Positions 979 to 63,400 of a stretch of DNA of 64,000 bases are shown here, piece after piece. The stretch comes from Selaginella moellendorffii (taxonomy: Eukaryota; Plantae; Lycopodiophyta), in contig NW_003314278.1 in NCBI RefSeq assembly GCF_000143415.4, forward strand, positions 2,058,362 through 2,122,361. Reading direction: 5' to 3'. The notes beneath the pieces were generated by a model. It ran no database searches. It was not told the DNA's origin and was given only the letters and a program-made list of their open reading frames with translations. The position numbers were made by a program, and so were the translations under genes. Position 1 is the first letter of the stretch. Each line of letters opens with the position of its first letter.

Positions 979-2746
979 TGTGAGACAAAAAATCCCTAGG
1001 CCCCAAAGTGGAGCCGGAAGGGCGCCACATGGTAGTGGCCGAAGCGAGAGCCAAACGAGCGTAACACGTTTGGACAAAAAGCTCCGACTTGAAAAGTCAA
1101 GAGCGGGAGTGGAACTCCCAACGAAGTGCTCGAGGAACGAGCACGAAGCGAGCAAAAGGCGAGGCTCCAAAAAGGGACCCAAAAGGACCAACACATGACA
1201 CGTGGGAGTGTCCGAGATGGAGTCCGAAGTGGAGTCCGAGGTGGACCCGAGTTGGAGTCCAAAGTGGAGTCCGAGATGGACCCGAGATGGACCCGAAATG
1301 GAGTCCGAGATGGAGTCCGAGATGGACCCGAGATGGAGTCCAAGATGGAGTCCGAGATGGAGTCCGAGATGGACTCGAGATGGAGTCCGAGATGGAGTCT
1401 GAGATGGAGTCCGAGATGGACCCGAGATGGAGTCCGAGATGGAGTCCGAGATGGACCCGAGATGGACCCGAAATGGAGTTCAAGATGGACCCGAAATGGA
1501 GTCCGAGATGGAGTCCGAGATGGACCCGAGATGGAGTTCGAGATGGACCCGAGATGGACCCGAGATGGAGTCCGAGATGGAGTCCGAAGTCGAGACCGAG
1601 ACCGGGACAGAGACCGAGACCGAGACCGAGATCGGGATCGGGACCGAGACCGAGACCGAGGCCGAGGCCGAGACCGAGCCCGAGCCCGAGTTCGAGTCCG
1701 AATCCGAATCCGAGTCCGAGTCCGAGTCCGAGTCCGAGTCCGGAGCTTGAGAGGGTGAAAGCCCAAAGCGTTTGTCTCCCAGACCCTAGGGGGTTTGGTG
1801 AGCTCCAAAAGTATAGTAGGGGGAGGACTGCAGTGGAGCCAGTTTGGCCAGGAAAGGCCAGTTTGGCCCAGGAAGGCCAGACCCAGTGTTGGGTGATGAA
1901 CTGACCACTGGGAAGTCCAAGACTAGAGTGAATACGGACCGACAAGCGGGGTAGCTTGGTGAAGTGTTCAAGAGCCGGCTCTAGTTCCCCCGGGAGATCG
2001 ACTGGCCGATGCTCCCAGTCCAAGTGTGGGTGGCACTACCTACATGGATACCAGGCGTGGCTCAACGGAACCTCGCTCTAAGCCCATGGCTAGAGCACCT
2101 AAAGGCGATAGGTGGGGAGAGTACCTAGGTGGCTCGCGTAAGGCCACGGTGTTCCGAAATGTCGTCCCAAAGGCCCAGACTGTGGAAAGGAAGAGGAGCA
2201 GTCCTCTGGGGTAGTGACCAAGGACACAGTCGTGTGGTGAGGAAGTCCCAGAGGACCGTGGGACTTAGTGGTCGGGCCTGTGGGCCTCGATCCAGTGGCA
2301 GTGTTGGCAAACATGGCCAGGGGCAGAAAGGGACTTGGTAGGAACTGACAAAGGGACTTTGGGGAAGGCGATTCCCCAGGTCTGTGGGCATCCTAAGGAT
2401 GCTAAGGAGTGGATCTAGGATGACCCCTCGTAGACAGATGGCCCAGTCTTGGAGAGACGGGATGGTGATGCAAGTGGTATTGGACCATTTGCGCAGCAAA
2501 GGTGAATGGGCATGGCCTTAGCGTAACGGGCCGAGATGTCAGTGGTACCTTTGGGTGTCGGTCATGGGATCGGACACGTGGAGCACTTGGACCAAGTGCA
2601 AAGGTTGAGTGGCATGGATGCCACTCTCGGGGCTAGCAAGCCCCAAGTCCTGAATGGGACTTATGGAGGTTGTGAATGAGACTCCTCCAAGTGGTCGGAG
2701 GTGTGGTTAAGTGACTAAAGTAGAATGGAAAAATTAGTCGCTTACA
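979..2746 (+). mobile_element. Family A LTR inserted into an A internal region
   Basis: TGTGAGAC...GTCGCTTACA termini, flanked by CCAAG at 974-978 and 2747-2751. No PBS follows. Confidence 0.92.
1217..1741 (+). repeat. LTR-internal minisatellite: (GAGATGGAGTCC/GAGATGGACCC)n then (GAGACC)n then (GAGTCC)n; present in every full A LTR
   Basis: Seen directly. Length varies between copies (e.g. 4750-5075, 22306-23025, 38862-39398). Confidence 0.95.
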
Positions 2747-4510
2747 CCAAGCGAGATTGGCACGTCAGGGGAAAAAATACCCTAGTTGAAGGTGATAACT
2801 TCAAAAAGGGTGGGCCATGGGGCCGAGCATGGAGGAGTCCATGCATGATCACAGACATGTCAAGTGAGAGGACTTGGCAGTGTGGAGGAACTAGGTTCCT
2901 AAGCTGTGATCTGTAGCGTGCTTTAAAAATAAGTTGGTGCACCGGCGTGGGGAGTCACGCCAAGCATCTTGTGTGATGCCGTCCGTAGATGCATATACGG
3001 AGGTTGGGTTCGAGTCCCGACCCTCTAGTGCTTGGGTTCGAGTCCCAAAATCACTAGGGCGTGGTGATGGTTTGGAATATGAGGACACTCATATTTCGGT
3101 GGTCATGGACTCTCAGTGGGGAGACTGGTTTGGGCACACCGCCAAGCGAGGGATGCCTCGGAGTCGTGATGCACGGTTAGATTGCTTAGTGTGAAAGCTC
3201 AGCATATCTAACTTGAACACTTTGGTGCAAGTGGCACCAAGGTCGTGGTGAGTGAGATGGGGACACCTAATCGCAGTTGCTATGAACCCTTGGCCATAAG
3301 GGCTAGCTTGGGTGCACCGCCAAGTGTGGGGGATGCCCCCGGGGTTATAGTCAACAACTTGGAGGTCTAGAAAACCAAGTACCTCTTGGCAACTCTGTTA
3401 AGGTGCCAAGGTGAGATCACTAGGTGATCTTATGGCCAGATAAGGACAAGGTCCTTGGTTGGCTAAGGAATGAAGTTCCTGGTTCAAAATGTTGAAATTG
3501 AACTGTTTAAGGTGGTGTGGCTTGGTCGTGATGACCAAGTGGGAAGAGCACCTAAGGGAAACAAACTATGTCCGTGCGATGGCATAGTGAGTCCGAGGAA
3601 AGTAGTCTCTATAAAAGACCCATGGGAGGGTCACGAAGTTGGGCCGTGGATAGAGCCCATAGCAGAAGATGCTAAAGAGACGTACTAGGGGTGAACATCC
3701 TCCAGACTTGGCAAAGAAGTCTTTGCTATGGAACCGAAACAATACCTCAAGGAGGGAGGTAGAGATTCAATGTTGCTTGGTGCAACAATCAACGGATAGG
3801 AGCAAAAGATGAGTGGCCAAGATAGGGCCGTGGAATCCCTTGGAAGGAATCCAAGTGACAAAATTAAGTGAGGAACACTAATGTGTTGGACGCTAACAAG
3901 TTGCGGGAAAGAAAGTGTGTTTCCAAGGAGGGATTCCGAAATGCTCCGATTTGGCGAAAGTGGAAGCTCCAAGGGAGGGAGCGGTAAGGTAGCCAAATGA
4001 TAGGGCCATGAACAGCCCTAGCACAAAGTATGATAACTGGAACTTTGGCACGAAATAAAAGAGAGGATGATGGTGCCCTCGAGTAGAGCACTTCCTAGGA
4101 TGGGAAGTGGAGTTGCACAAAAGGTGCAAGGCAAGGTGTCGGAGACACCTAGGAAATTGACTCCAAGAAGTCAAAATTCAAAAGTTCCAAAGTGCAAAGG
4201 TTATATCGATGGAAATTGAGACTACTCGAGAAGGAGTAGTGGGATTGACTTAGAGAAAGGTCTCTAAGAGGTTTAGCGAGAACTAAACCAATAAAAGGAG
4301 GGAAGCATTACATGTGGTCCAATCAGTCTCTAAGTTGGAGAGACTACGCTCCTTAAAGGATGGACAAGGCATGGTGAGCCTTTGGTGTCAAACCATAGAC
4401 AAAGATTGGCTAGGTGCCAAGGATGGAAATGGTAACACGTGTGGGTGTTACTTTATGAAAGGGTTTACCGTTCGATGAGGACATCGAACTTCGTCTATGG
4501 GTGGTGGAGT
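2747..4510 (+). mobile_element. Family A internal region, 3' half, ending in the PPT
   Basis: Homologous to 6081-7901, 34165-35933 and 42656-46327. Ends ATGGGTGGTGGAGT immediately before the next LTR. Confidence 0.9.
4497..4510 (+). promoter_or_regulatory. Polypurine tract of family A (also before the LTRs at 7902, 35934, 38624 (variant), 46328)
   Basis: ATGGGTGGTGGAGT abuts the TG of the LTR and is identical to the family B PPT. Confidence 0.8.
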
Positions 4511-18799: not shown

Positions 18800-21620
18800 C
18801 ACATCATCCCCTTCTCTCAAAATGATGGAAGACCATTAGAGTAGATAGGCCGGGATCTGGAAGAACATCAAAAGGAGGCATCGGTGGATTTATAGATGGT
18901 GTTAGTTGTTTTTGATCCCTTTGTACAAAGCATTTCAACCATTGCACATATACAATTTCTAGGGGATTGGCTTGTTGGATGTTATGTTGAACCTCATAAA
19001 CTTGTAGTCCAACTTGTCACAACACTCGATACAATCTTTTCCACTAAGCAAGGAGCCCCTTAGATAAGCCAAATATCGTAAAATGGGGAAAACAGACTAA
19101 CACCAAGTCATCCACTTTGTACTCTACAAGTGGATGATGATAGGAGTTGTAATGCCATTGTTGTCCCACTTATACACGGCCTAGGTGTTTGGTAGACTCT
19201 GCTTAGACAAGCAGAAGAATGCCTGTCAAATATTGATCCCAAGACCTAATATCGGCAGCTTGTGGCAATTGTGAAGGTAAACCCAATTCCGTTAATAATA
19301 TTAGATTATAACCATATAGGAATTTATATGGTGAAGCACTAATAGAACTTTACACCCCTATAACATATGTATATTAAAGAGATGGTAAATAACCATCCCA
19401 ATTGGAGTGCTAAAAGTTCATATACTTCGTGATCATCTAGCATGATCATCTTCCAATAATGTTCGTGAACTATGTAAATATGCATGAAGTTTCTCGAAAC
19501 CCCAAACTGCTGCTAAACACTCATTCTCTATCATGGAGTAGTTCACCTTTGCTAGTTGTAATGTACAGTTGATATATGCAATGGGATGGCACTGACCAGA
19601 CACACTCGGGCTCTCTTGCACCAACACACCTCCAATATTAAAAGTATCTATGCGCAAAATGAAAGGTCAAGTGTTGTAGTGCATTCTATCTCTCTCCCCT
19701 TAAGCCAACTGGAAAAGGGGCAATTGCTTAATGAGAGAGCCCTTAGTGGCTATTTTATCCCCATTTATCCCCCAAGGTTCCAAGGATTCACGGTGATAGT
19801 ATATCCAAATCTCATCCCATGATCACATGCGCTACAAGTGTAGTCAGAATATGTTAAAACCAGAGGAGTCATCAACAGCTCTTTGAGATCTGTGAATGCA
19901 TGTTCACAATTCATAGATCAGATAAAAGATGATATTGATGAATTCAGCAATGCTCACAACAGTGTAGTGCGATAAAAAAGATGATCCATAAAACGACAGA
20001 GATACTGCACTTTGCCTAGAAAGTGTTGCACATCATTCACACACTTTGGAGTAGGGAACTTTTAGAACAACCACAAGTTTGTTATGATCAATTTACAAAC
20101 CTTCACGAGAAATACAGTACCCAAGATAAGTTGTCCTTGGACCCAAACACACTTTTCGACTGCTTTAGCTTTAAACTAACTTCCCGTAACCGATCTAACA
20201 CCTTACGAACATTTCCTCCCATATCCCTTCCGAGTGGATCAAGACATCATCAATGAAGTCAGTAGTCACCTTTGATATATCGCAAAGAACCTCATCCATC
20301 ATCCGTTGGAAAGTTGCTAGAGCATTATTCAAACCAAATAGCATTACCAAGAACTCGTACAAACCAAATAGTGTATGAAAAATAGTCTTTGGAATATTTT
20401 CTTTAGCTATTAGTACTTGCCAATACTTAGAATCAAGATCTAGCTTAGTGAACTAAGAATTTCTCCCCAGACGATCCAAGAAATCAACAATGTGAGGAAA
20501 ATTATACACATCTAGGATTATCACTTCATTTAATTGATGATAGTTGATGCAAAAACAAATACTTCATTAAGTTTCGTCACAACATGAGGTTTAAATGCCC
20601 AAGGACTTTGCAACTTTCTAATAACACCCTTTTCTAACATTTTCTTGACGTTTGCATGTAAAATTATGATCTCTTTGAGTGATCGATGACAAATAAGAAC
20701 CTTGATCGGATGAGCATCCCCAGTTGGAATAGGATGACATGTTGCAATCTTGGCTTTAGATGGCAGGTCAAATTCAAAGGGATTAACATACTTCTTCATA
20801 AGTTCGTCGATTGTTACAACACAAAGACAATCAGAAAGATTGAAAAAGGGAAGAGAGGAATAAGATAGAAATATAGAAGGAAGTAATGGAGAGACAAAAG
20901 TGATGGAAGCAAAGGTAAAAGCAAAGAAATGAAAAAGTACTAAAGTGAGAGGAATTGATAAAATATAAGGAAGTATAAGACAAGGAGGAAAAACCTCAAA
21001 ATCATATTTAGCATGATTGTGTCACAATGAATTCATACCAAAGATGAAATCAAAAGCTTGATTCGACACCACATGCAATGACTGCAACTCAAGTTTGAGA
21101 TCGCCCATAAACAAAACCAAATCCTTCTTATCCCATGTATAAGCATGTGTATGGCCATTGCCATAAAGAATGAAAATTGGCTTTGCTACATGATATAAAT
21201 GTAGACAGCAACGTGTGGCAATAGGCTAAGCTATAGAAGATAAGCTCGAACCTGTATCAATCAATATAAAGAGAATAATAAGCGACCTCTTGTTATAATA
21301 ACGAGTTTGGAAAATAAACATTGGATGAACTGGTGCTAAATGAACCCCTTGATGATACTCCCAAAAGAAAAATGAAGGGGTTACTAACTTATTCGTGCAA
21401 AGTCCCTCTACTACTCTTGCAACTCCTCGTTTCTTAAATGCATTTTGATGTCCAAACCTTCTACAGCAGCAACACCAACATAATGTTGTTAATGCCAAGG
21501 TCTCCACCTAGGAAATGGAAGTCGTTAGTCCAGAAAACACCGACAACACTGATAAGTGTGACTAATTTCATCACATACCCAGTAGTGGACATTATAGACA
21601 CAATTACATCCTCACCCTTA
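18800..21620 (-). pseudogene. Old degenerate Ty3/gypsy pol (PR-RT-RNaseH remnants) with putative PPT at 18804-18818
   Basis: LIDTGSS (protease), IPTGDAHPIK and FGLYEFLVMLFGLNNALATFQRMMD (RT), NYSMIENECLAAVWGFEKL (RNase H). The minus strand has GAGAGAAGGGGATGA-TG. Confidence 0.85.
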
Positions 21621-24351
21621 TCCTTGGGGATGGTCCAAAGTTGAGTTGAGCTCAATTCAGCTCAAGTTAATGCTAGTCAACATAGTCAACCATAAGTCTT
21701 ATAAGGAAATATTAAGTCAGAAAAATGTTATTCTTTGGTGAACTTGAAATTTATGAATTTAAGTATTAATAGTTCAAAGAAATTTCTATTTTCTGAATCT
21801 TTCCAATGCAATTTATACAATAAAATACTGTTTCTAGAATTAGAAGTTCGTCTGAACCCATAGAAATTTTTGGGCTTTATCAATCCCAAATAAAATGGGA
21901 ATATTGAAGTTTGATTGAACCTAAATTTCTATTGTACATTTCAACATTTTAACATTTCAACAATTGACCAGAAATATATAAATAATTCGAGAAACACTGA
22001 TTTACTCATTCATTCTATAGGGTTTACAAGGATAGGAAGCAAGGAAAACAAAAAATCTGTAAGTAATTTGTGAGACACAAAATCCCTAGGCCCCAAAGTG
22101 GAGCTAAGAGGGTGCCACGTGGTAATGGCTGAAGCAAAAGCCAAACAAGCGAAACACATTTGGACTAAAAGCTTCAACTTGAAAAGGTCAAGAGTGGGAG
22201 TGGAACTCCCAACGAAGTGCTTGAGGAACAAGCATGAGGCGAGCCATGAGTGAGTCTCCAGAAAAGGGGACACAAGAGAACCAAACCATGACACGTGGAA
22301 GTGTCCGAGATGGAGTTTGAGGTGGAGTCCGAGATGGAGTCTGAGGTGGAGTCCGAAATGGAGTTTGAGATGGAGTCCGAGGTGGAGTCTGAGGTGGACC
22401 TGAGATGGACCCAAGATGGACCCGAGATTGAGTCTGAGATGGACCCAAGATGGAGTCCGAGATGGACCCGAGATGGACCCGAGATGGAGTCCGAGATGGA
22501 CCCGAGATGGAGTCCGAGATGGAGTCCGAGATGGACCCGAGGTGAAGTCCGAGATGGAGTCCGAGATGAACTCGAAATGGAATCCGAGATGGACCCGAGA
22601 TGGAGTCCGAGATGGAGTCCGAGATGGACCTGAGATGGAGTCTGAGATGGACCCGAGATGGAGTCCGAGATGGACCCGAGATGGAGTCCGAGATGGAGTC
22701 CGAGATGGACCCGAGGTGAAGTCCGAGATGGAGTCCGAGATGAACTCGAAATGGAATCCGAGATGGACCCGAGATGGAGTCCGAGATGGAGTCCGAGATG
22801 GACCGAAAATGGAATCCGAGATGGAGTCTGAGAAGGACCCAAGATGGAGTCTGAAGTCAAGATCGAGACCAAGACCGAGACCAGGACCGAGACCGGGACC
22901 GAGACCGAGACCGGGACCGAGACCGAGACCGGGACCGAGACCGAGGCTGAGGCTGAGGCCGAGACCGAGCCCAAGCCCGAGTCTGAGTCCAAGTCCGAGT
23001 CTGCGTCCGAGTCCGAGTTCGAGTCTGAGAGGGTGAAAGCCCAAAGCGTTCATCTCCCAAACCTTGGGGGGTTTGGTGAGCTCCAAAAGTATAGTAGGGG
23101 GAGGACTACAATGGAGCCAGTTTGGCCAGGAAAGGCCAGTTTGGCCCAAGAAGGCTGTACCTAGTGTTGGGTGATGAACTGCCCATTGGGAAGTCCAAGA
23201 CTAAAGTGAATATAGATCAACAAGCGGGCTAGCTGTAAGCCACAAATTTTTCCTTTCCAATTTGCCAGCTTACCTCGTCTATCCGACCAACTCTGCCTTG
23301 GCTTGTGCTAAGTTCCCTCGCCAAGGTTCCCGCCTATGGTACCAGCTTCTACTTGGTCCTACTTGGTTTCAGCTACTCACTGCACGAGCAACGGAGTGTT
23401 AGCCATCCATCTACGGATTCCCAAATCTCTCCCAATCCCCCTCCCCGGGTTAGACTGGACTTAAGGTTCGGCTACACTCCCCGCAGGCACAAGCAGCCAA
23501 GCACACCAAGCCTCCAGATTCCTAACACCCCTTGGTACCACAAGACTTGATCATGGGACCCTCTAAATCCCAAGTATTGGGTGCAGGACTTGCTTCGGGA
23601 CGTCAGGGCGAAACACCGTGGCCTAACGGCCTGGTATGGGTACCTCTACCCCCCCACTTCCATCCCGAAGGGAAGGCCCAAGCCCCTAGGAAGGGCGAGG
23701 ACCAATGAGCCACAAGGTACTCAAGTGGGGCACCACTCCACATGAGCCGGGAGCACCGCAGTCGGTTTCCCTTTCGGGAGTGGGAGCTGCTCTTGAGCAC
23801 TTCCCTGGGTGGCCCCTCCGGCACCACTCAAGCCCATGCTCACTCCCACCCAAGGCCCCTCGGCCCCAGTCTCAACCTCAAGTCAGTTTGGAAGCACCAC
23901 TGGAGAGTTCCTTCAAGACTGGTTCCTGGACCTCACTATCCCTACTATACTTTTGGAACCCCCGGAAGCCCCCCCCCCCCCCCCCCTGGGAGACGCATGC
24001 TTTGGGCTTTCACCCCTTGACCCGTATTAGTATTTGGACTTAGTCTCTGGCTCGATCTCGGACCCGATTTCGGATCCGACTTCAGATTCGGTCTCGGAGT
24101 CGATCTCGGAGTCGATCTCGGACCCGATCTCGGACCTGACCTCGGACTCGACCTCGGACTCGGTCTCGGACCCGATTTCGGATCTCGGACTCCGTCTCGA
24201 ACTCGGTCTTGAACTCGGACTCGAACTCGGTCCCCGAGTCGGTCTTGGACTCGATCTTCGACTTGGTCCGATCCGATGAACTCTTTGTCATTTTGGTCAT
24301 GCTTTTGGGGTTCCTTTAGCCTAAAACACTTCGGCGAGTTGGTTCCTCACA

Positions 24352-24365
24352 ACTCCACCACCCAT
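24352..24365 (-). promoter_or_regulatory. PPT of element B
   Basis: ATGGGTGGTGGAGT directly before the TG of the 3' LTR. Confidence 0.85.
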
Positions 24366-25136
24366 AGAAGAAGTTCGATGCCCACATCGAACGTCTCGCT
24401 TTATCCTATGACTTGTTGACCATGGCTCCGGGGGCATCCCCCCACTTAGTGGTGTGCCTAAGTTAGCCTCCCCAGCCAAGAGCCCATGACAACGGAATAT
24501 AGGTGTCCCTATACCCCTAACCTCACCACGCCCTAGTATGGGGTCGGGACTTGAACCCAGCCTTGCTTTACTAGGGGGTTGGGACTCGAACCCAACCTCC
24601 ATAGAATACGTCTACGGATTCGACATCCCCACGGGGAGTCAGGTGTAGTGCCCTACGCCTGGTCGACCTATCTAACCCATGCTAATTAGCTTACCTTCGG
24701 CGCGCCTTCGGGTCCCAACATATGCCACTTGCTCAACTTTGCAAATTGATATTTTTAATTGAATTTTGCATAAGTACATAGAGTTCTGCCTTGCAGAAAT
24801 TCCTCCACTAGATCTCGCGCATTCGCTAGGTTCTCCTCCGGTTCCCATGTTGCTTCACAGTGTGGAAATCCTTTCCACTTCACATGGAACTCTCTCACCT
24901 CGCGTCCTTGTCGCTTGCTCTTGCGCGCATTGAGGATGGCCTCGACTTCGTATTCCTCTTCCCCTTGGATAACCTCAAGTAAAGGTCTCACTTGGTCCTT
25001 GCGAAGCGGATCCTCAAAGTACGGCTTGAGTAAGTTCACGTGGAACACTAGGTGCATCTTCCCCATCTCTCGAGGAAGTCAGAGTCGGTAAGCCACTTTA
25101 CCGATTCGTACCTCAATCTCGTAAGGCCCCGCGAAC

Positions 25137-25188
25137 CTGCTTAAGGAACTCAAGATCAATTCATTTACAGGAATACATGCATCTTTAC
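25137..25188 (-). other. Putative 52-nt spliceosomal intron before the integrase GPY motif
   Basis: AAG|GTAAAG...TTCCTTAAGCAG|G. Removal gives RKLTQ-R-FAGPYEI in the chromodomain frame. Confidence 0.8.
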
Positions 25189-25606
25189 CTTTGGGTCAAC
25201 TTTCGGCTGATCCCACTTGGTAGTCTGAGGTTCTTGGTGTTCAGCCACACCTTCTCCCCAGCTTGGAACTTTACATCCCGACGCTTCTGGTTCGCGTATT
25301 TGGTTTGCCTTTGTTGAGCCTGTTCCAAGGAATCCCTCACTAGATTCCAAATGCTAAATCTTTCCGCCGTGAATGCCTCCACTTCGGGCAACTCTCCATG
25401 ATACTCGGCCATGCCGAGTTCCACAGGACCTTCAATAGCTCGCCCATTGATGACTTCCCATGGACTCACCCCGATACTCGAATGTGGTGAGTTGTTATAA
25501 CACATTTCCACAAGTCCCAAATGACTTACCCAATCGGTCTGGTCTCCCGAGACATAGCATCGCAAATAATCCTCCAGCTGCCTATTCACCCTTTCTGTTT
25601 GTCCGT

Positions 25607-25652
25607 CTGTCAAGAAGTGTTAGTGCCAACAACTTGACTTAATACCCCATAC
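25607..25652 (-). other. Putative 46-nt spliceosomal intron in the integrase catalytic core
   Basis: CAG|GTATGG...CACTAAC...TTCTTGACAG|AC. Removal gives AYHPQT-D-GQTERVN in frame. Confidence 0.8.
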
Positions 25653-27699
25653 CTGTCTGTGGGTGATAGGCTGTGCTGAATTTCAACTTGGTGCGATACT
25701 GTTCCAGGAGAGTCCTCCAGAACCTACTGGTGAAGATCTTATCTCGATCTGAGATGATCTCTTCCGGTCTTCCCCGCACTCGAACCACTTGTTTGAAGAA
25801 TAGCTTTGCCACACCTTTCGCATCCACCTCCGTTGTGGTGGGTATGAAATGTGCCATTTTTGAAAATCGGTCCACCACCACGAATATCGCATCAAACCCC
25901 TCGCTTGGGGGGAGTCCCGTGATGAAGTCCATCGTAAGACATTTCCACGGACGATCTGGAATTGGGATGCTTTGCAACAAGCCCCCACTAGCCTTAGTCA
26001 CGGCTTTTACCTGCTGACATGTTGGACATGTCTTTACATAGTCTTGGACGTCCTTAGCCATATCTGGCCAATGGTACTTCCTCTTGAGTAAGCCCATCGT
26101 CTTGGGCACTCTGCCGTGTCCCGCAAGGGGTCCGTCATGACACTCTTCTAAGGCCACCTTCCTTAGTTCCCCTTCTGGAACATACACCCTCGTTTGCTTG
26201 TAATAGATGAGTCTGTTGCGTTCTGCATAGCCCGTTTTCTCTTCCGTTGGCAGTTCACCTCTCTGGTGAGCTTCCCGTGCCTCTAGATTCCTCAGCAACA
26301 CTTCTTGTGCTAGACCATCATTCTCATATGCTATCCGCACATCGTCCCAGAAGGTTGCTGTTGCGCTGGATATTGCCAATCTCAAGCTCGCTTTTCGACT
26401 TAGCGCATCCGCCACGATGTTGCTCTTCCCAGGCTTGTATAGAATCTCGCAATCAAACTCGGCCAAGGCATTGGCCCACCGACGTTGTTTCCCTCTCAGG
26501 TCGGGCTGTGACAAGAAGTGTTTCGTTGCCACATTGTCTGTGTAAACCTTGAAGTGTCTCCCAAGGTAGTGTCGCCACTCCTTGAGCGCCTTGACCACTG
26601 CAAACAATTCCTTCTCATGGGCAGGCCACTTCCGCTGAGCCTTGTCCAACTTCTTCGAGAAGAACGCTACCGGATGGTTGTCTTGCTTCAAAACTGCGCC
26701 CAATGCAAAGTCCAAAGCATCCGTTTCTACCTCAAAGTCCTTACCAAAGTCTGGTAATGCCAATACAGGAGCCTTCCTCAACTTCCCTTTGAGGTGGACG
26801 AATGCCGCCTCGCATTCCGCTGTCCACACCATCTTCCCTTTTCCTGTTTGGTCCGTTAAGGGCAGGGCTACTCTCGAATAGTGTCTGATAAACTTTCGAT
26901 AGTAGTTGCATAGCCCCAGGAATGCCCTCAACTCGTGTACATTTGATGGTCGCTCCCATTCCTGGATCGCTTGGACCTTCTCCGGGTCCACCTTGAGCCC
27001 GTCCTGGCCCACCACATGCCCGAGGAACTTTACCTCTTGTTGAGCAAAGTCACATTTGCTCTCTTTAGCATACAGTTTGTGTTCCCTTAGTTTCTCAAAC
27101 ACCTTCCCCAAGTGTTCGGCATGCTCCTCTAGCGTCTCGCTATAGATCAAGATGTTGTCGATATAGACGACCACAAAGTGATCCAGATAGGGTACAAATA
27201 TGTGGTTCATTAGCGCCGAAAACGTTGCCGGCGCATTACATAGCCCGAAGGGCATCACCAGAAACTCAAAGCTCCCATACCTCGTTCGACAGGTTGTCTT
27301 CTCGACATCTTCCTCGGCTACCCTGATCTGGTAGTATCCTGACCTTAGGTCAATCCTCGAGAAGTATTTTGCCTTTCCCAACCTATCGAACAGGTCCTCA
27401 ATCCTTGGCAAAGGGTACTTGTTCTCCTTTGTATACTTGTTGAGCAACTGGTAGTCTATGCACATGCGCATAGATCCATCTTTCTTTTTCACAAATAACA
27501 CCAGTGCCCCATACGGTGACTTGCTCAACCTAACATACCCTTTGTCCACCAACTCCTCTAGTTGGCACTTGAGCTCCTTGAGTTCTTTTTCGTTCAAACG
27601 ATAAGGGGGACGAACCACTGCCTCAGCACCCTCGACCAGCTCAATCTTATATTCTATCGGTCGTGCTGGGGGTAGCCCCGCCGGTAGCTCCTCTAGCAT

Positions 27700-29526
27700 G
27701 GTATCCTAGAATTGGTCCAACACCCGCTGGATCACTAAAGGTACTTCTTCCATTCCTGTCTTTTTGTCACTCTTCACCGAGAGTAAACACAAAAAGGCTG
27801 CCTTAGTTCCTTTAGTGAGTTGTCCTTTCGTGGACACCAGGTTTAAGTAGGAATCTTTGGCCTTGCTTTGCCCTACCTTTAGATCTTGGGCCTCCACCCT
27901 AGATCTTCTTCCTTGGGCATTCGCCAGTACCACAAGGTTTCTACCTTGTCCATGCAGGGCTACCACGAATCGATTGAACCAGTCCATTCCGAAGATCACG
28001 TCAAATCCCGCCATGTCCAACACGGTGAAATCCATGTCCACCTTCCAAGTCCCCACTTCGACTCTCGCTTGTCGAAGTACCTCATCGGTGCTTTGGCTAC
28101 CTTGAACAAACTCTATAGTCCTTGGTTCGCCTAGCCGCTACACCGTTAGTCCGGCTTGCTGGACCATGTCTGCAGCCACAAAATTATCCGAAGCACCCGT
28201 GTCAATAAGGATCTTAACAAAGCTACCTCCGAGCTTCCCTCGGAGGGCTAGTAGATGTCGCGAACGACTCTCTACCAAAGTTGCTCGTGTAATGAGTAAC
28301 TTTGAGTTAGGGATTGGATCACATACCTCAGTTTGGACTTCACCCGACTTGATGGCCATATTGGCTCTGGCCTTCTTCGGGTAGGGACATTCCCTCGAGA
28401 AGTGTCCCACTTCACCGCAGTTGTAGCATACGTTGTTTCCCACGCTGCTATACAACTTGACCTTCTTATCCGTGGGTTTGTCTCTTTTCGCTTGACTCCC
28501 CCACGTACTCGCTCACTGGCCACCGGATCTGCTTTTCCGGAACCCCGAGGACTCATTCTTAGAGAAACTCTTCTTGAATTTCCCTCTGTTAAACGTTCCC
28601 CTTGGTTTGGCCCCTTTGCTAAATGTGGATCCCGACCCCGTCGTGTTCCCTTTTCGCAGGTTATCGTTGAAATGCACCTTGATGGCCGCATCCAATGCTT
28701 CCTTGTAGTTGGTCGGGTTCCACCGCATTATTTCGCCGCGAGCCCAGGTTTGCAACCCTGATATGAAGGCATGGAACGCATCCATATCCCCCATGTCCGT
28801 GACAAGTATTCTCTTTGCCATAAACCCATTCACATACTCTTGAATGGTTCCAGTCTGCTTCAGCCTACTCAGCTCGTCCCTTAGATGCAGAGTAGCATTC
28901 GGAGGAACGTAAGTTGCACAGATCCTCGCCTTCATCATTTCCCAAGTGGCCACCGGTCCTTCGTTAGCCTCTGTCGTTCTCCACCAAGACTTGGCATTAT
29001 CTACCAAGTATGGTTTTGCACATGGAACCTTCTCCGAGCTCAGTAATCGCAACGCTTGGAAGTAGTCCTCCATATCGTAAAACCAATCCTCCACCACCTT
29101 ATAGTCGTTCACTCCCTTGAAGACCGGTGGGGGCTTTGGTTTGTACTTGGGAACTGCCTGAGGGACTGATTCCACTTCGGTCTGTTCGACCTTGTCTGGT
29201 TTTGCCTCAGTCCCTGCCGAAGGGTCCGCACCTTCTGCGCTGCCAGCATCAGCAGTCTTTCGCTTTTTCTTCCGCTTCTCATCACGCTTTAGCTTGCGTA
29301 CGAGAGTCTCTAGCAGGGCATTGGTCTGTGCCAATTGTCCTTCTAGAACATCCAATCGAGCCTTGGACGACCGAACCTCACCACCAGACTCCTGTTTGGA
29401 AGTTGCCTCACTGGAGTCCTCCTCATGCAAGGATTCCTCATCCATAGCCTCCTGTTCGACTGGAGGCTCTAGCTCTGGAGGAGGTTCCGTCTCTGCCTGG
29501 GTTCGCTTACGTCTTGCCCTTGCTAT
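27700..29526 (-). pseudogene. gag: gag (retrotransposon capsid, CCHC zinc knuckle) and aspartic protease, in frame with pol
   Basis: CYNCGEVGHFSREC knuckle and LIDTGASDNF protease motif. ORFs 28513-29445, 28138-28455, 27706-28056 and 25639-27699 share one frame, separated by single stop codons. Confidence 0.92.
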
Positions 29527-29569: not shown

Positions 29570-29582
29570 GGCTCCGATACCA
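29570..29582 (-). promoter_or_regulatory. Primer binding site (tRNA-iMet type) of element B
   Basis: TGGTATCGGAGCC, 3 nt after the 5' LTR; one change from the canonical TGGTATCAGAGCC. Confidence 0.9.
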
Positions 29583-30804
29583 AATTGTAAGCCACAAATT
29601 TTTCCTTTCCAATTTGCCAGCTTACCTCGTCTATCCGACCAACTCTGCCTTGGCTTGTGCTAAGTTCCCTTGCCAAGGTTCCCGCCTATGGTACCAGCTC
29701 CTACTTGGTCCTACTTGGTTTTAGCTACTCACTGCACGAGCAACGGAGTGTTAGCCATCCATCTATGGATTCCCAAATCTCTCCCAATCCCCCTCCCCAG
29801 GTTAGACTGGACTTAAGGTTTGGCTACACTCCCCGCAGGCACAAGCAGCCAAGCACACCAAGCCTCCAGATTCCTAACACCCCTTGGTACCACAAGACTT
29901 GATCATGGGACCCTCTAAATCCCAAGTCTTGGGTGCAGGACTTGCTTCGGGACGTCAGGGCGAAACACCGTGGCCTAACGGCCCAGTATGGGTACCTCTA
30001 CCCCCCCACTTCCATCCCGAAGGGAAGGCCCAAACCCCTAGGAAGGGCGAGGACTAATGAGCCACAAGGTACTCAAGTGGGGCACCACTCCACATGAGCC
30101 GGGAGCACCACAGTCAATTTCCCTATCGGGAGTGGGAGCTGCTCTTGAGCACTTCCCTGGGTGGCCCCTCCGGCACCACTCAAGCCCATGCTCACTCCCA
30201 CCCAAGGCCCCTCGGCCCCAGTCTCAACCTCAAGTCAGTTTGGAAGCACCACTGGAGAGTTCCTTCAAGACTGGTTCCTGGACCTCACTATCCCTACTAT
30301 ACTTTTGGAACCCCCTGCAGCCCCCCCCCCCCACCCCCACCCCTGGGAGACACACGCTTTGGGCTTTCACCCTTGACCCGTATTAGTATTTGGACTTAGT
30401 CTCTGGCTCGATCTCGGACCCGATTTCGGATCCGACTTCAGATTCGGTCTCGGACTCGGTCTTGGACTCGATCTCGGACCCGATCTCGGACCCGATCTCG
30501 GACTCGACCTCGGACTCGGTCTCGGACCCGATTTCGGATCTCAGACTCCGTCTCGAACTCGGTCTTGAACTCGGACTCGAACTCGATCCCCGAGTTGGTC
30601 TTGGACTCGATCTTCGACTTGGTCCGATCCGATGAACTCTTTGTCATTTTGGTCATGCTTTTGGGGTTCCTTTAGCCTACGACACTTCGGCGAGTTGGTT
30701 CCTTACAGTAGCTTGGTGAAGTGTTCAAGAGCCGGCTCTAGTTCCCCCAGGAGATCAACTGGCCGATGCTCCTAGTCTAAGTGTGGGTGGCACTACTTAC
30801 TTGG

Positions 30805-44341: not shown

Positions 44342-46232
44342 TGTAAGGAACCGACTCCCCGAGATGTCGTAGGCTAAAGGATCCCCGAAAGCATGACCGA
44401 AATGACAAAGAGTTCATCGGATGGGACTGAGTTGAAGATTGAGTCCAAGACCGACTCTGAGACCGAGTTCAAGATAGAGTCCGGGATCGAGCCCAAGGCC
44501 AAATCGGAGACCAAGTTCGAGACCGAGTTCGAGACCGAGTTCGAGATAGAGTCCGAGATCAAAATCAAGTTCGAGACCGAGTTCGAGGTCGAGTCCGAGA
44601 TCGGGTCCAAGATCGGGTCTGAGATCGAGTTCGAAATCGAGTCTGAGACCGAGTCCGAAGTCGGGTCCGAGATCGAGTTTGAGACTAAGTCCAAATACTA
44701 ATACAGGTTAAGGGGTGAAAGCCCAAAGCGTGTGTCTCCCAAAGGGGGGGAAGGGGGGGGGGGGGGGGGGGGGGTTGGGGTCCCTTACGGGGGTCCCAAA
44801 ATTATTTATGGGTTGTGGGGGCCCGGGACCCACCTTTGAGGGACTCTTTCGTGGGGCTTTCCAACTGACTTTAGGGTTGAAACCGGGGGCCAAGGGCCCT
44901 TGGGGGGGATGAACCTGGGGCTTTGGGGGGGTTTTAAGGGGCCCCCCGGGTAATGGTTTAAAGACGCTCCCCCTCCCCAAAAGGGAAATGGATGGGGGGG
45001 CCCCCCCCTTAGGGGAGGGGGGGCCCCCAAATTGGGNNNNNNNNNNNNNNNNNNNNNNNNNNNNNNNNNNNNNNNNNNNNNNNNNNNNNNNNNNNNNNNN
45101 NNNNNNNNNNNNNNNNNNNNNNNNNNNNNNNNNNNNNNNNNNNNNNNNNNNNNNNNNNNNNNNNNNNNNNNNNNNNNNNNNNNNNNNNNNNNNNNNNNNN
45201 NNNNNNNNNNNNNNNNNNNNNNNNNNNNNNNNNNNNNNNNNNNNNNNNNNNNNNNNNNNNNNNNNNNNNNNNNNNNNNNNNNNNNNNNNNNNNNNNNNNN
45301 NNNNNNNNNNNNNNNNNNNNNNNNNNNNNNNNNNNNNNNNNNNNNNNNNNNNNNNNNNNNNNNNNNNNNNNNNNNNNNNNNNNNNNNNNNNNNNNNNNNN
45401 NNNNNNNNNNNNNNNNNNNNNNNNNNNNNNNNNNNNNNNNNNNNNNNNNNNNNNNNNNNNNNNNNNNNNNNNNNNNNNNNNNNNNNNNNNNNNNNNNNNN
45501 NNNNNNNNNNNNNNNNNNNNNNNNNNNNNNNNNTCTTGAAGGAACTCTTCAGTGGTGCTTCCAAACTGACTTGAGGTTGAGACTGGGGCCGAGGGGGCTT
45601 GGGTGGGAGTGAGCATGGGCTTGGGTGGTGCTAGAGGGGCCACCCAGGGAAGTGCTCAAGAGCAGCTCCCACTCCCGATAGGGAAACTGACTGCAGTGCT
45701 CCCAGCTCAAGTGGAGTGGTGCCCCATACTTGAGTACCTTGTGGCTCATTGGTCCTCACTTTTCCTAGGGGTTTGGGCCTTCCCTTCGGGATGGAAGTGG
45801 GGGGGGGAGGGGGAGGAGTAGAGGTACCCATACCGAGCCGATAGGCCACGGTGTTTCACCCCGATGTCCCGAAGCAAGTGTTGCACCCAAGGCTTGGGAT
45901 TTAGAGGGTCCCATGATCAAGTCTTGTTGTACCAAGGGGTGTTAAGAACCTAGAGGCTTGGTGTGTTTGGCTGCTTGTGCTTGCGGGGAGTGTAGCCGAA
46001 CCTTAAGTCTAGTCTAACCCAGGGAGGGGGATTGGGAGAGATTGGGAATATGTGGATGGAAGGCTAACGCTTTGTTGCTCGTGCAGTGAGTAGCTGAAAC
46101 CAAGCAGGACCAAGTAGGAGCTGGTACAATAGGTGAGAACCTAGGCGAGGGAACTTAGCACAAGCCAAGGTAGTGTTGGTCGGATAGATGAGGTAAGCTG
46201 GCAAATTGGAAAGGAAAAATTTGTGGCTTACA
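44342..46232 (+). mobile_element. Family B LTR (probably solo) inserted into an A internal region; spans an assembly gap
   Basis: TGTAAGGAACC...GTGGCTTACA, TSD CTAAG (44337-44341 / 46233-46237). Reverse complement of the B LTRs. Confidence 0.85.
45037..45533. other. Assembly gap (N run), preceded by low-quality sequence after a poly-G run
   Basis: Ns. The stretch 44780-45036 is a homopolymer-inflated version of sequence that reappears after the gap. Confidence 0.97.
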
Positions 46233-48744: not shown

Positions 48745-49293
48745 ATGGTTAGAAAGAAGTTTAACTTTGGTCCCAAAAGCATTTCATATGAGTCTCCACC
48801 TCCATCTCCAATCTCAACTAATAATCCACCTTCACCTCTACATAACAATCTTTCTTTTCATTTTGAGGGTTGTTGTGAGGTTCTTTCATTTGCGACCTTG
48901 AGTGCAACTGAACAAGAATTCCTTCCTTATAATGTTGTTAAAAGAGTTGGATTGCCTCCAATGCTCCAAGAGTGATGTCAATATTTTCTTCAAGATCTTG
49001 CTCCAGATATGGCAGGAGAGCTTAATGTAGATATATATTATTTTCAATATCCTATATGCAACTTTTATTTAAACAAGACAAATAGTTGTATGGGTTTGGT
49101 AAATTTTATTGAAAATTGTCGCAAATGCCCAAGAGCGGGTTTGGAAGGTTTACACGTGTGGATGTATAAGAAAATCAAAAAAGAATTAAAAACACACAAC
49201 TATTATGATTTCATGGTGGAGAACAATATTCCATTAGTGAACACTACATTAGTAAGTGCTAAATATGGGATATTAGGCCACCCTTTAATGTAA
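48745..49293 (+). pseudogene. Tandem paralogue of the small Cys/His ORF, with an in-frame stop
   Basis: ORFs 48733-48975 and 49009-49293 align with 49556-50104 (MLQE*CQ versus MLQERCQ). Confidence 0.75.
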
Positions 49294-49555
49294 TGTGAAA
49301 GTCATACATAGTTTTTTCAAAAGTTTAATTCTTTATGAGTAAAGTGGAGAATTTTATATTTTTGAGAATGATAGTATTTTAGCATATATAAAGATATTAT
49401 TATATATACAAGTGGTTCTGACACTGTTATAATTCTGAAGTTCCATTTTTGAGACTGACAATTTAAACTTTCAAGAACCCTTAGATCTTTTCTTAGTATA
49501 AATACTGACAAAAGATGCTTTCAACATTGAAATTTCAGTTATTTAGAGTATAGGA

Positions 49556-50104
49556 ATGGCTAGGGAAAATGCTATTGCAACTTGCATTTGGCCCCCATGC
49601 ATTTCATATAAGTCTCCACTTCCGTCTCCAACTTATACCAACATTCCACCCTTCCTTCCACACAATAATCGTTGTGAGGCTTTTCCTTTTGTAGCCCCAA
49701 GTGTGACTGAACAAGAGATCCCTCTTCCAGATAATGTTTTAGATGTTGCTACTAAAGATGGATTGCCTCATATGCTTCAAGAGCGATGCCAAATGCTTCT
49801 TCAAGATCTTGCTCCAGATATGGCTGAAACTTTTGAAAGAATAAACACATATTATCTCCAATGTCCCATCTGCTATTTTTATTTAGATAAAACAGAAGGC
49901 TGTATAGGTCTAGAAACTTTTCTAGAACATTGTCACAATTGCCTAAGAACTAGTGTGGAAGATGTGCATAAATGGATGTATAAGAAAATTAAGAAAGAGT
50001 TAAGAAAACACAACCATTATCATTTCATGGTGAGGAACAATATTCCATTAGTAAATACTATATTCACAAGTACTGAATATGGTACTTTGAGGCCATCCTA
50101 CTGA
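49556..50104 (+). CDS. Hypothetical 182-aa protein with a CxxC...HxxC putative zinc-binding motif
   Basis: Intact ATG-to-stop ORF in AT-rich DNA; CPICYFYLDKTEGCIGLETFLEHCHNC; at least two homologous copies in the window. Confidence 0.55.
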   Translation: MARENAIATCIWPPCISYKSPLPSPTYTNIPPFLPHNNRCEAFPFVAPSVTEQEIPLPDNVLDVATKDGLPHMLQERCQMLLQDLAPDMAETFERINTYYLQCPICYFYLDKTEGCIGLETFLEHCHNCLRTSVEDVHKWMYKKIKKELRKHNHYHFMVRNNIPLVNTIFTSTEYGTLRPSY

Positions 50105-52923: not shown

Positions 52924-53812
52924 TGTTTTTGCACTACAAACTGTCCCAACCTGGAAGACACAAATTGTTAAAAGTGATTGAAGAGGGAGAGGTACTTACG
53001 CATTAATTTTGTGGTAAGTTATCACAAGCCTTGCCACATCTAAAGATCCTCTCGCATATACATGTCCAACTAAAACATTGATGTGATAGACAGAATCGTC
53101 TCAAAAGCATTCATTGATGCACTTCATCCATGCACACTAATGATGATTCTCGTCCATAATGTAGAACATTTTCCCCACAAATTGTTGAGTCTCAAGATGA
53201 CTCATAAGCATGTTGTCAAATTCGCGGGACTTCATTTTCCAAATGTCATCCCAAACCCTCTCGATTTCTAGTGACATCGAGAGGGTATTTGTCATTCCTG
53301 GCTTGAAGACCGAAACAAGGAACATACCTATGTTTGTTCCAAGGCCATTTTGTTTGTACAGACAGTTTGTAGTGTTTTTGCACTACAAACTGTCCCAACC
53401 TGGAAGACACAAATTGTTAAAAGTGATTGAAGAGGGAGAGGTACTTACGCATTAATTTTGTGGTAAGTTATCACAAGCCTTGCCACATCTAAAGATCCTC
53501 TCGTGTATACATGTCCAACTAAAACATTGATGTGATAGACAGAATCGTCTCGAAAGCATTCATTGATGCACTTCATCCATGCACACTAATGATGATTCCC
53601 GTCCATAGTGTAGAACATTTTCCCCACAAATTGTTGAGTCTCAAGATGACTCATAAGCATGTTGTCAAATTCACGGGACTTCATTTTCCAAATGTCATCC
53701 CAAACCCTCTCGATTTCTAGTGACATCGAGAGGGTATTTGTCATTCCTGGCTTGAAGACCAAAACAAGGAACATACCTATGTTTGTTCCAAGGCCATTCT
53801 GTTTGTACAGAC
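52924..53812. repeat. 449-bp tandem duplication inside the ParB-like region
   Basis: gcactacaaactgtcc occurs at 52931 and 53380; the copies are near-identical. Confidence 0.95.
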
Positions 53813-57518: not shown

Positions 57519-59480
57519 TCAGACTGTTATTTTTTGCCTCCAATGCCTATACAATAATCTTGGAATTTCATCACTCTCCACACTATCAGGATTTAAACCC
57601 AATAGTAATGCCATCTCTTCTCTAATACGTCCACGCTCATGTTCAGTGGTCGAAGAACCCATTCGGTTGAGCAGATTATGGAGATGCGGATAGTGCTTGG
57701 CTAAACAATATACATGCCATAAATGATGACTGGTGTCTGTCCGATCAAATGGCTTCTGATATACCGTTCCATCTGCCATTTGGTTGATTTCTGCAGCCAC
57801 CTCCTGGACTGGCCGGTTCTCTATCACCATCGCTCCAAGCCATTTTGCAAAGTCCCCCAGAACATACGGTTTCTTCTCCCTAGTTCCCATACTGCAAGAG
57901 ATGGGGTACACTGCATATGTGTGCGTGTTCGCTACAGTTTTAATCGGCGAGTCATTGATGATGAGGATTTCACTTGACCTAGCAGTCCGGTTCATCACTA
58001 CAGCCTCTGGCTTGATGAAGATGGGCTTGCTACCCCTCACATGGACCATAGTCAAGCAATCCTCCTGCATTAGGAGAAAGTCAAATGGTAATATTACTCG
58101 CGTCTGATCGTGCATCATATGTAGCAACGTTAATGCATTGTGGCGCATCATGGATGTCCAAACTCCCAATTGCAAATTGAACCCGGCCCTCTGTTTTAAG
58201 TGTCGCATGGTCATTATTAGATCCCATAGTTTTTCCCGTGTGATTAATGTGAATCTGTCTCTTTTGACCAACTTGCGACCGCAGGCTTTGGAGGGTGCAG
58301 TGACATTTGAGGACAAGCCACGCTCATGGGAGAAAAGGACACCGTTCAGATCAAAAACGATACAGTAACTTCGCCGTGACTCTGAAATGAAATGCGTCAA
58401 CATAAAAAATGGTACAAGTCAATTTTACCATCTACAATAGTAATAGTAACAAGTACTATTATCTGCGACGATTTTTGCTGCCTCTTCTTGCTCTTTCTCC
58501 TCTTTGCGGCTCTTCTTTTTGGTGGGTGTAGTGTTTGAAACCGAGGCAATGGCATCACCGAGTAGCTTCTTTTTTGGAGCAGGAGAGTCAGACGTCGGCT
58601 TGAGCTTGACCACCCTTTTCTGCTTTGGGGTAGTTTCCAGATCGTCCCCTTCGCTTCGCAAACTGGAGGCACTCTCAACGGCTCAATGTTGGAATATAGT
58701 TTTTGAACATTGCCGTAGGTGAGGTCCGTGGATTCCATGTGATCTTCATAGACCCGCAGCGTCTTTGAAATTGTGGGCCTCCTGGACAACCTCTCCCTAG
58801 CTCCCTCTAGGAATTCCTCATAGCCGCTGCCCCCCTCTAGGAAGCCGCTAGGATGTGCAAGGTGGATCTTGAAGGCGGACGCTGTCTCTACCACAAGTGC
58901 CAGTCCATATTCTTGCATGGAATTGCATGGAGTGTCTGTCACTTGGATGAGGATCCCCATGCATTCTTTTCTCCCACCATTTGTGTTGTACAGCCTCAGA
59001 TCCTCGCCTTCCATCCCAAAAGTCCAACTGGTGAGCTCCTCCCCCTTCCCTGCATCCACATTGATAGTGGCTGGAAGAAGAACGCAATTCCTCGCCTGTT
59101 CAGAAATGCACAACAATTAGAGCTGACAGATGAAAAGCTAGCAGCTGGAAATAACGTGAGGCCACATGCCATTCACCATTGCATCAGATGTCTTGAGGCT
59201 GCATCCTAAGATGGCGTGAGGCTATACGCCATCTGTAACCGGACTGCACTCGAGAGCCCAATCAGTGCATGCCAATGTTGCTACTGAATGGCATGTGGCC
59301 TCATGCTATTTTCTATTTGGCCTAAAAGACTTACCATTTGAAGCCGAATGGAGGCATGACAATCGAGGCCAGACTCGCTGGCGAATGTGCACTGTGTGTG
59401 CAGCGGATTGTAGCAGCAAGGCTACTCTGCCACTTACAGTTGGAGAGTGGCGCTGAAATCTCCTGGGACGCCAAGTGGGC
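57519..59480 (-). pseudogene. Intron-containing gene ending in an FCP1/NIF-like HAD phosphatase domain (57519-58380); N-terminal part apparently frameshifted
   Basis: IVFDLNGVL, LGVWTSMMRHN, KPIFIK and LIINDSPIK correspond to HAD motifs I-IV of the DLNG-type FCP1-homology family. GTAAGT donor at ~59333; acceptors at ~59097 and ~58382. Confidence 0.65.
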
Positions 59481-62029: not shown

Positions 62030-63400
62030 GCAGTGCAGATAGAGACTGTGAGAAACTCATTTATAATTCCAAAGCATGTTCAAAAAATAGTGCTTAAGGA
62101 TTTTATCGCAAGCACTTTACTTGATCTAGACTGCAAGAATACTCAACTGGATGAGGCTAGCTTGCAGGAGTTACTACTACACGTGCAACCTGCAACTAGC
62201 CTTAGGAGTTATGAAAATATTGTTACATACTTTTCAATAATATCTCTCTTATATTTTGTTTTATTTAGGATAAAGTTTTGAATCTGTGAATCTCGAGAGT
62301 GGAAACTCCAATAAAAAATTAACTCAATCCTTGAACTAAATCAGACTTGTCCCTACGAGTTTATCCATGGGAGTTTATTTCCAGATCAAGTCGTTAATGA
62401 GCAAGAGTGTTCCTTTGTTTTCAAAATGTCTACCATAAGCCTTGCCTTTAGTGTGGATCTTGTTTCCTGAATGGATATATTTGGGTCAAATGACCTTGCT
62501 AATGCATAGGTACATTTTGACCATATGGAGCGGGTGGTGGGTTGGACAACCATGGGAGCTTATGTGTATGATCTGAGGTAGTTTTTTTTTTCTCATTATC
62601 TTAAAATGGTATTAAGCATTGCCCTTTTCACAGGCTACGTTGTAACATGACAATTGCAATAGCAGAGTTTAAAGTACAAGACCAGATGGCTCAGGAAATA
62701 TTTTGGAAGTCCCTCTCCAACATTGTATTGAAGTGGACTGGTAAGCCTACCAACTTTCACGGTTTCATGGCAGATGGGGCTGAGGCTAATTGGAATGGTG
62801 TCCGGGTAGTCTTTGGGAATGGTCAACCTCTAGAGGTCGTGAGAAGACTTGTGAGTTCTATTGGGCTCAAAGCCTAAACCAACATTGCCACCTTATCAAG
62901 CCAGATTTCCAATTAGCATTTAAGGAGTTGTGCAAACAATAGTAGGTTGCACCTTTTAAAGAAGAGCATGAGGCAAAAACAAATGAGATCCGATATGGTG
63001 GCGTGAAGATGGCCATATTGACACAAGTTGTCTACCACAACTTGAGTCGTGGTTAGGGTGGTGGGAAGTTAAAATGTTCCAATGGGGACATCATTCTTTT
63101 TAGGTTGGTTTTTCTTTTTTTCCTCTCTTTTTATTGCTTTTTAATATTATCTTTTTGTAAGGATCAACCACTTGAGGATCTTGTATACACCCTAATTGTG
63201 AATCTCTCAGAGAGAAAACATTGGAGTTGGCGTTCCTCTGAGGTAGAGAAAGGGAAGATGAGTTTATATGAAGCATGTCTATCAGATTTGATACGTGCTG
63301 TAGAGCAGTTTTCAAAAGCCTTGGCATTTGAGGAAGGAAGATACATAGGAATAGGACCTTCGGTTGAGATGTTGCATGATTGGATGAAAAAGAAAGTGAC
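62030..63400 (+). pseudogene. Degenerate MULE/MuDR-type transposase
   Basis: VHFDHMERVVGWTTMGAYVYD, GFMADGAEANWNGVRVVFG and CEFYW (CxxH position) motifs; 56-nt GT-AG intron at 62578-62633; stops and frameshifts. Confidence 0.65.

Follow-up and report, generated by a model that had tools for sequence, protein, structure and literature searches.

A high-copy Ty3/gypsy chromovirus of Selaginella moellendorffii, very likely the described family SM1-Galahad, carries two short inserts (46 and 52 nt) inside its integrase reading frame, and these inserts look like spliceosomal introns of the size usual in this host. The family itself was known and this feature of it had so far gone unrecognised. Judged from sequence, the inserts are quite probably true introns in use. 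That spliced RNA makes the integrase and unspliced RNA is the genome that is copied is, in our view, a probable reading. Indirect evidence shows that the whole family has the inserts and that this copy integrated with them in place.

The element lies on the minus strand of a 64-kb window, by which we mean the whole stretch of 64,000 nt that was analysed, and its parts are collected in Table 1. Pfam searches with six pieces returned Gag, CCHC, protease, RT, RNase H, integrase and chromodomain, arranged as in gypsy elements. The domain order Gag-PR-RT-RH-INT followed by a C-terminal chromodomain (from Pfam and from structures of Ty3 and integrases), together with TG..CA LTRs, a PBS, a PPT and a target-site duplication (TSD) of 5 bp with one mismatch, is that of a Ty3/gypsy chromovirus. 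The PBS is one that we take to belong to tRNA-Met. The Rfam search of the element gave no match. No clear pair of TATA boxes was seen in the LTR, and for this reason the LTR speaks neither for nor against a two-promoter scheme of the BARE type. A second LTR of the same family, about 90% identical, with an enlarged middle part and apparently solo, was observed at 44342-46232 (-), and a decayed gypsy-type RT/RNase H relic, 40% identical to the RT of the element, at 19500-21400 (-).

Table 1 Parts of the element and its flanking target-site duplication; positions are those of the window.
Feature	Position	Strand	Content
Element, full length	30707 to 23234	-	7,474 nt
5' LTR	29586..30707	-	1,122 nt, TG..CA, 12-nt poly-G tract, 11-12-nt tandem units
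Primer-binding site	29570..29582	-	13-nt, presumably tRNA-Met type
Coding piece 1	25653..29526	-	Gag, CCHC knuckle, protease, RT, RNase H, integrase zinc finger and core
Insert 1	25607..25652	-	46 nt
Coding piece 2	25189..25606	-	418 nt, open; catalytic Glu, remaining integrase core, start of SH3-type C-terminal domain
Insert 2	25137..25188	-	52 nt
Coding piece 3	24755..25136	-	GPY motif, end of SH3 domain, group I chromodomain
3' untranslated region	24352..24754	-	Small hairpins, polypurine tract; parts common to non-coding family A
3' LTR	23234..24351	-	1,118 nt, 18-nt poly-G tract
Target-site duplication, left copy	23229..23233	.	One mismatch against the empty site in three family A LTRs
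Target-site duplication, right copy	30708..30712	.	

The copy examined is dead. It has four in-frame stops (28513, 28138 and 27706 in piece 1; 25079-25081 in piece 3) and an altered RT motif in piece 1, all of which were absent from the preliminary description of this DNA. The chromodomain is intact, and pieces 2 and 3 are open save for the one stop and contain no frameshift. The LTRs, called near-identical before, are 96.6% identical when measured, and the duplication of the target site claimed at the same time is indeed present at 5 bp, with one mismatch. The host site is an LTR of family A, a second group of repeats in the window, and the empty site is found in three other family A LTRs. 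With a TSD inside a family A LTR, the inserts were already present at integration, in agreement with the earlier proposal that this copy transposed with them.

Removal of the two inserts restores an integrase that is collinear with its homologues, as is the case for U2-type introns. Piece 1 ends just short of the catalytic Glu of the integrase. Each coding piece was aligned separately to 205 fetched proteins, with repeated-domain proteins counted more than once. Among pairings in which both pieces aligned as far as their ends, only the split codon lay between the pieces at junction 1 in 215/215, and the same was true at junction 2, a loosely conserved region, in 40/67 pairings, the other 27 giving -3 to +16. 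Excision at the GT/AG ends, as originally proposed, therefore puts the pieces in register with the relatives. On yeast Ty3, residue 1267 is the last one matched by piece 1 and residue 1269 the first one matched by piece 2. In the element, a distance of 35 residues from the second catalytic Asp to the Glu is obtained only across junction 1 with insert 1 left out. Related DNA loci were also free of inserts, both across junction 1 (12/12) and across junction 2 (8/8; 14 loci in total); these loci, from viral and genome contigs, are distant (39-59% over long matches). None of the 351 fetched proteins ended at either junction. The junction-1 intron pattern was found in no viral contig, no prokaryote genome contig and a single metagenome contig (L001), where a long unrelated open frame marks it as a chance match.

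Both inserts have GT..AG ends, a branch-like motif, a high U content and a host-typical length, the signals of U2-type introns. Insert 1 (GC 41%, phase 1) combines a GTA donor, a CTAAC branch-like motif 14 nt from the insert end and a CAG acceptor. Similarly, insert 2 (GC 35%, phase 2) has a GTA donor, a TTGAT branch-like motif 20 nt from its end and a GCAG acceptor. Translation that enters either insert from upstream meets a stop (GMGY* in insert 1, KLTQR* in insert 2), and the sizes and ends of the inserts are as first placed. The coding pieces have a GC content of 50-52%, and the inserts contain 33-35% U against 17% in the flanks, in line with the 15-point U excess quoted for plant introns (PMC3735527). 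A U content as high as that of the insert was found in 4.2% of size-matched coding windows for insert 1 and in 1.4% for insert 2, and the GC content of insert 2 was below that of all 4,437 coding windows of equal size.

At 46 nt, insert 1 would be a rather short intron; the median intron of S. moellendorffii is 59 bp (PMC3729371, Table 3). GT..AG introns of 49 and 56 nt occur in DNA-transposon relics of the window, and the 56-nt intron reported before in a MULE relic was confirmed at 62578-62633. The 49-nt candidate (GTAAGT..CAG; 52951-52999 (-)) joins two frames of a decayed DNA-transposon-like gene and sits inside a 440-nt tandem duplication (52924-53812). A further candidate was noted in a long two-piece frame at 57519-59116 (-), likely split by a 75-nt intron; a 47-nt candidate at 58382-58428 was dropped, as the frames fit the 75-nt intron better. 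This frame encodes an IVFDLNGVL motif, which we assume to recall HAD/FCP1-type phosphatases. Elsewhere in the window, a short frame with cysteines is present at 48766-50104 in two copies that have diverged (71%).

To what extent such signals arise by chance was estimated from random inserts of matching size and composition. Some GT..AG register was obtained in 0.8-4.8% of trials, and GTA..YAG with a branch-like motif in 0.02-0.15%. With flanking duplications allowed, the rates were at most 4.8% for GT..AG, 0.5% for GTA..YAG and 0.15% with the branch-like motif in addition; as products for two inserts, the joint rates were about 2e-3, 2e-5 and 2e-6, respectively, which are no strict p-values because the finding was picked among many windows. 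Direct repeats flank both inserts, of 5 nt at insert 1 and of 4 nt at insert 2, where AGGT stands at each end. Part of the GT/AG signal therefore comes free, since a duplicating insertion supplies splice letters through its flanking repeats. Introners, which are similar introns repeated at many sites with splice sites derived from TSDs, would leave such repeats, but the two inserts are dissimilar (886/1,000 shuffles score equally well), and no copy of either was found elsewhere within the 64-kb window. The inserts fold no better than shuffles (z -0.65 and 0.71), which rules out reading them as hairpins or mini-transposons.

The identity of the element was missed in the preliminary description, as was the existence of an intact sister family, SM2-Galahad. 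SM1-Galahad was described from S. moellendorffii as an element of ~7.5 kb with LTRs of more than 1 kb containing poly-G tracts and a 13-bp tRNA-Met PBS, present in hundreds of copies that are 95% similar (Novikov et al. 2012, PMC3350952). Its consensus has an ORF1 of 3,885 bp that terminates within the integrase core, an ORF2 of 316 bp and an ORF3 of 309 bp with the chromodomain; this layout is given without a reason and no intact copy is reported to have been found, and neither 'intron' nor 'splic' occurs in the text. The element described here agrees in size (7,474), LTRs above 1 kb with poly-G, 13-bp PBS, ORF1 (3,885 bp), ORF3 (309 bp) and group I chromodomain, and differs in ORF2, which is 318 bp here. 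Counting 3,885 bp back from the stop in insert 1 leads to position 29526, where this copy has no start codon, and in genomic run X1 the sites at which it departs from almost all other copies include 29524. It is therefore very likely SM1-Galahad, matched by anatomy and ORF lengths.

SM2-Galahad, in contrast, is intact and has a single uninterrupted ORF of 1,577 aa, hundreds of copies and LTRs that are 99.7% identical (PMC3350952). The three coding pieces here sum to 1,557 aa (by arithmetic). SM2-Galahad and the Galadriel clade share with the element a tRNA-Met PBS, a 5-bp TSD, a chromodomain and a gag-pol of ~1,540-1,580 aa, but their pol is uninterrupted (PMC3350952; PMC6317226). In a tree, the element groups (support 0.999, 32 of the 75 rows) with single-frame plant elements of 1,370-1,670 aa, none of them clade-labelled. 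The uninterrupted ORF of the sister family argues that the inserts were gained.

Because the published consensus ORF lengths of SM1-Galahad already imply both inserts, these are family-wide and not private to one copy. The genomic run, which may itself be the source of the window, points the same way. Here, 65,520 contigs were placed on the element at 85% likeness (summed contig depth was not taken as copy number), and depth in the two bins with the inserts was not reduced. Just two indels were listed in 5,401 bases, alongside at least 646 substitutions: 1-nt insertions at 25629 and 25630 (4 and 16 contigs), both inside insert 1 and probably one variable spot. No indel was listed across copies in pieces 2 and 3, whereas insert 1 has some. 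A loss of 46 or 52 nt was found neither among these two indels nor among the best 15 of at least 114 joints, which had depths of 214-462 against ~900,000 summed. Among the pieces listed, one of 240 nt and 33 differences crosses insert 2, with just one gap.

We propose that the host spliceosome excises both inserts from some of the transcripts. RNA spliced at both sites would encode a polyprotein of ~1,557 aa with a D,D35E integrase, an SH3 domain and the chromodomain, and it alone would give full integrase; removal of insert 1 by itself would lead to a stop before the GPY motif. Unspliced RNA would yield Gag-PR-RT-RH and an integrase stump without the catalytic Glu, the C-terminal domain and the chromodomain. 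The result would be an excess of Gag and RT over integrase from a single-ORF element.

Loss of introns on reverse transcription is the textbook proof of transposition by way of RNA. For the same reason, a family with hundreds of copies and introns in its integrase must sort its RNAs, because reverse transcription of spliced RNA loses them. Spliced RNA retains the PBS, the PPT and R, so that one would expect it to be copied and insert-free elements to prevail. Such elements were not seen among the joints listed, which suggests that spliced RNA is barred from reverse transcription. The translated and the packaged RNAs would probably be separate pools, as in BARE1, and integrase would reach the genome RNA in trans within a mixed particle. 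Both introns were presumably gained in the SM1-Galahad lineage, probably as short insertions whose flanking repeats gave the splice-site letters.

RNA, protein and constraint evidence was also sought. Sampled at ~12% each, three RNA runs under the same species label (X22-X24) yielded 12, 3 and 0 reads; at a floor of three reads no junction was listed, the 15 reads together being too few for listing. Protein searches returned nothing more than 56% identical to any piece, so that no read-through product of the family is on record. Compared with 66 relatives, the conserved columns kept were 44/46 in piece 1, 23/30 in piece 2 and 15/18 in piece 3; piece 2 is below the relatives' median of 93%, with 5/66 relatives scoring lower, and its deviations are mostly conservative replacements.

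The lower conservation of piece 2 and the lack of a spliced read among these 15 are compatible with a different history, in which SM1-Galahad is an integrase-dead parasite: two disabling insertions without useful splicing became fixed in a master copy, and the family multiplied on integrase taken from SM2-Galahad. A suitable donor exists in the intact and abundant SM2-Galahad, no intact SM1-Galahad is reported in the 2012 paper, and non-coding family A shows that elements with such ends are mobilised in trans. We nevertheless consider this history, the main rival to our reading, unlikely. It calls for two independent insertions that both came with donor, branch-like motif, acceptor, U-richness and host intron size, which is improbable. 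Moreover, the frames downstream of insert 1 have stayed free of frameshifts in this copy and of listed indels across copies, unlike insert 1 itself, and the changes in piece 2 are mostly of the conservative kind.

Family A (979-4510 and repeats) is non-coding, with a longest internal frame of 110 codons, and some of its units stand head to tail with one LTR in common. The 48 nt before its 3' LTR are 94% identical to those of the element (24352-24400) and include an 8-bp stem of which the loop differs. LTR ends, a tRNA-Met-type PBS and pieces of the 3' UTR at 72-74% are also in common (24352-24400, 24413-24618). Paired small hairpins occur in the 3' UTR of both families (24530-24610 (-) and the internal region of family A; fold z -1.8, no Rfam match), and presumably they recall a tRNA T-arm or a Pol III B-box. 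Since the PPT region, LTR ends and 3' UTR pieces are in common, family A is likely to be mobilised by a Galahad family as its passenger, for which SM1-Galahad or SM2-Galahad would suffice. The splicing model had been offered as an explanation for the success of family A; it is not needed for this purpose, because intact SM2-Galahad could serve SM1-Galahad and family A alike.

It is also conceivable, if quite improbable, that the inserts are spliced and the spliced RNA is packaged as well, the introns persisting through rare splicing or because insert-free copies make poor masters (e.g. silenced or poorly exported), without any sorting. Short facultative retrotransposon introns are often partly spliced, in a subset of transcripts in Ogre (PMC6317226) and in about half in BARE1 (PMC3735527), and single-copy insert-free joints could sit among the joints beyond the best 15 of at least 114. 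However, a copy without inserts would produce its integrase in cis and be expected to spread, and those best 15, all of low depth, contain no insert-free joint. A route to integrase without splicing, by ribosomal recoding over the two inserts or by translation of the downstream ORFs as separate proteins, is hardly credible. In its favour, the frame of piece 3 runs open through insert 2, which one +1 shift could pass, and three ORFs were drawn in the 2012 paper (PMC3350952). Against it, insert 1 carries stops in the incoming as well as the outgoing frame, which all but excludes recoding, 15 extra residues would disrupt the D,D35E spacing, and the first ATG of ORF2 is downstream of the catalytic Glu.

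We therefore return to true introns with spliced RNA for the integrase and unspliced RNA for the genome. A stronger form would make the two introns, gained de novo, a switch: packaging would be fully closed to spliced RNA, no new copy could encode in its own RNA the enzyme that integrates it, and host splicing would set the integrase supply, including that of family A passengers. This form we put forward only tentatively, and we lean slightly against it. If the proposed cycle holds, every genomic copy records which RNA was packaged, so that the choice of LTR elements between genome and message becomes testable by counts of copies and reads. The cycle would also account for the odd layout of three ORFs reported for SM1-Galahad in 2012 and provide a dated case of intron gain, with a sister family without inserts and flanking repeats that survive. 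Equally, annotation tools that label such elements 'defective' may overlook spliced autonomous families.

Plant LTR elements are generally without introns, Ogre and EVADE being exceptions (2025 review, PMC12786077). We found no literature report of introns inside a Ty3/gypsy integrase or in SM1-Galahad, in a search that left most subscription papers and Repbase outside, and passages of PMC2864245, PMC12130899, PMC12477816, PMC2678813, PMC3783388 and a Chlamydomonas preprint contain nothing on this matter. The splicing-gated life cycle proposed at the outset thus keeps its support from host-sized, family-wide introns, but its novelty was overstated, as Ogre, foamy viruses and BARE1 are precedents. 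Splice-gated supply of an enzyme is already known from Ogre and foamy viruses.

Penelope-like elements also keep introns through retrotransposition (PMC8557442), but they are not LTR elements and have another mechanism, and their intron is mostly in the 5' UTR. In BARE1 and EVADE/copia the intron is likewise small and facultative, and in BARE1 a capped spliced RNA is translated while only unspliced RNA, a separate pool, is packaged (PMC3735527, PMC12786077). There, however, splicing removes Pol and leaves Gag only, and the unspliced genome encodes everything. Foamy viruses produce Pol from a spliced RNA and supply the enzyme in trans to an unspliced genome (PMC7828637), but splicing in this case skips gag to give a separate Pol, and no intron lies within an enzyme. 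Ogre of legumes is also a Ty3/gypsy element, in which the intron is removed in a subset of transcripts and retained in the genome (PMC6317226, PMC12786077, PMC3735527), and its removal is needed to translate the whole polyprotein (PMC6317226). Ogre has one intron of ~274 bp in the non-coding spacer between its gag-pro and rt ORFs; the element here has two tiny inserts, both inside a single enzyme, one of them lying between catalytic residues, and the integrase alone would be gated.
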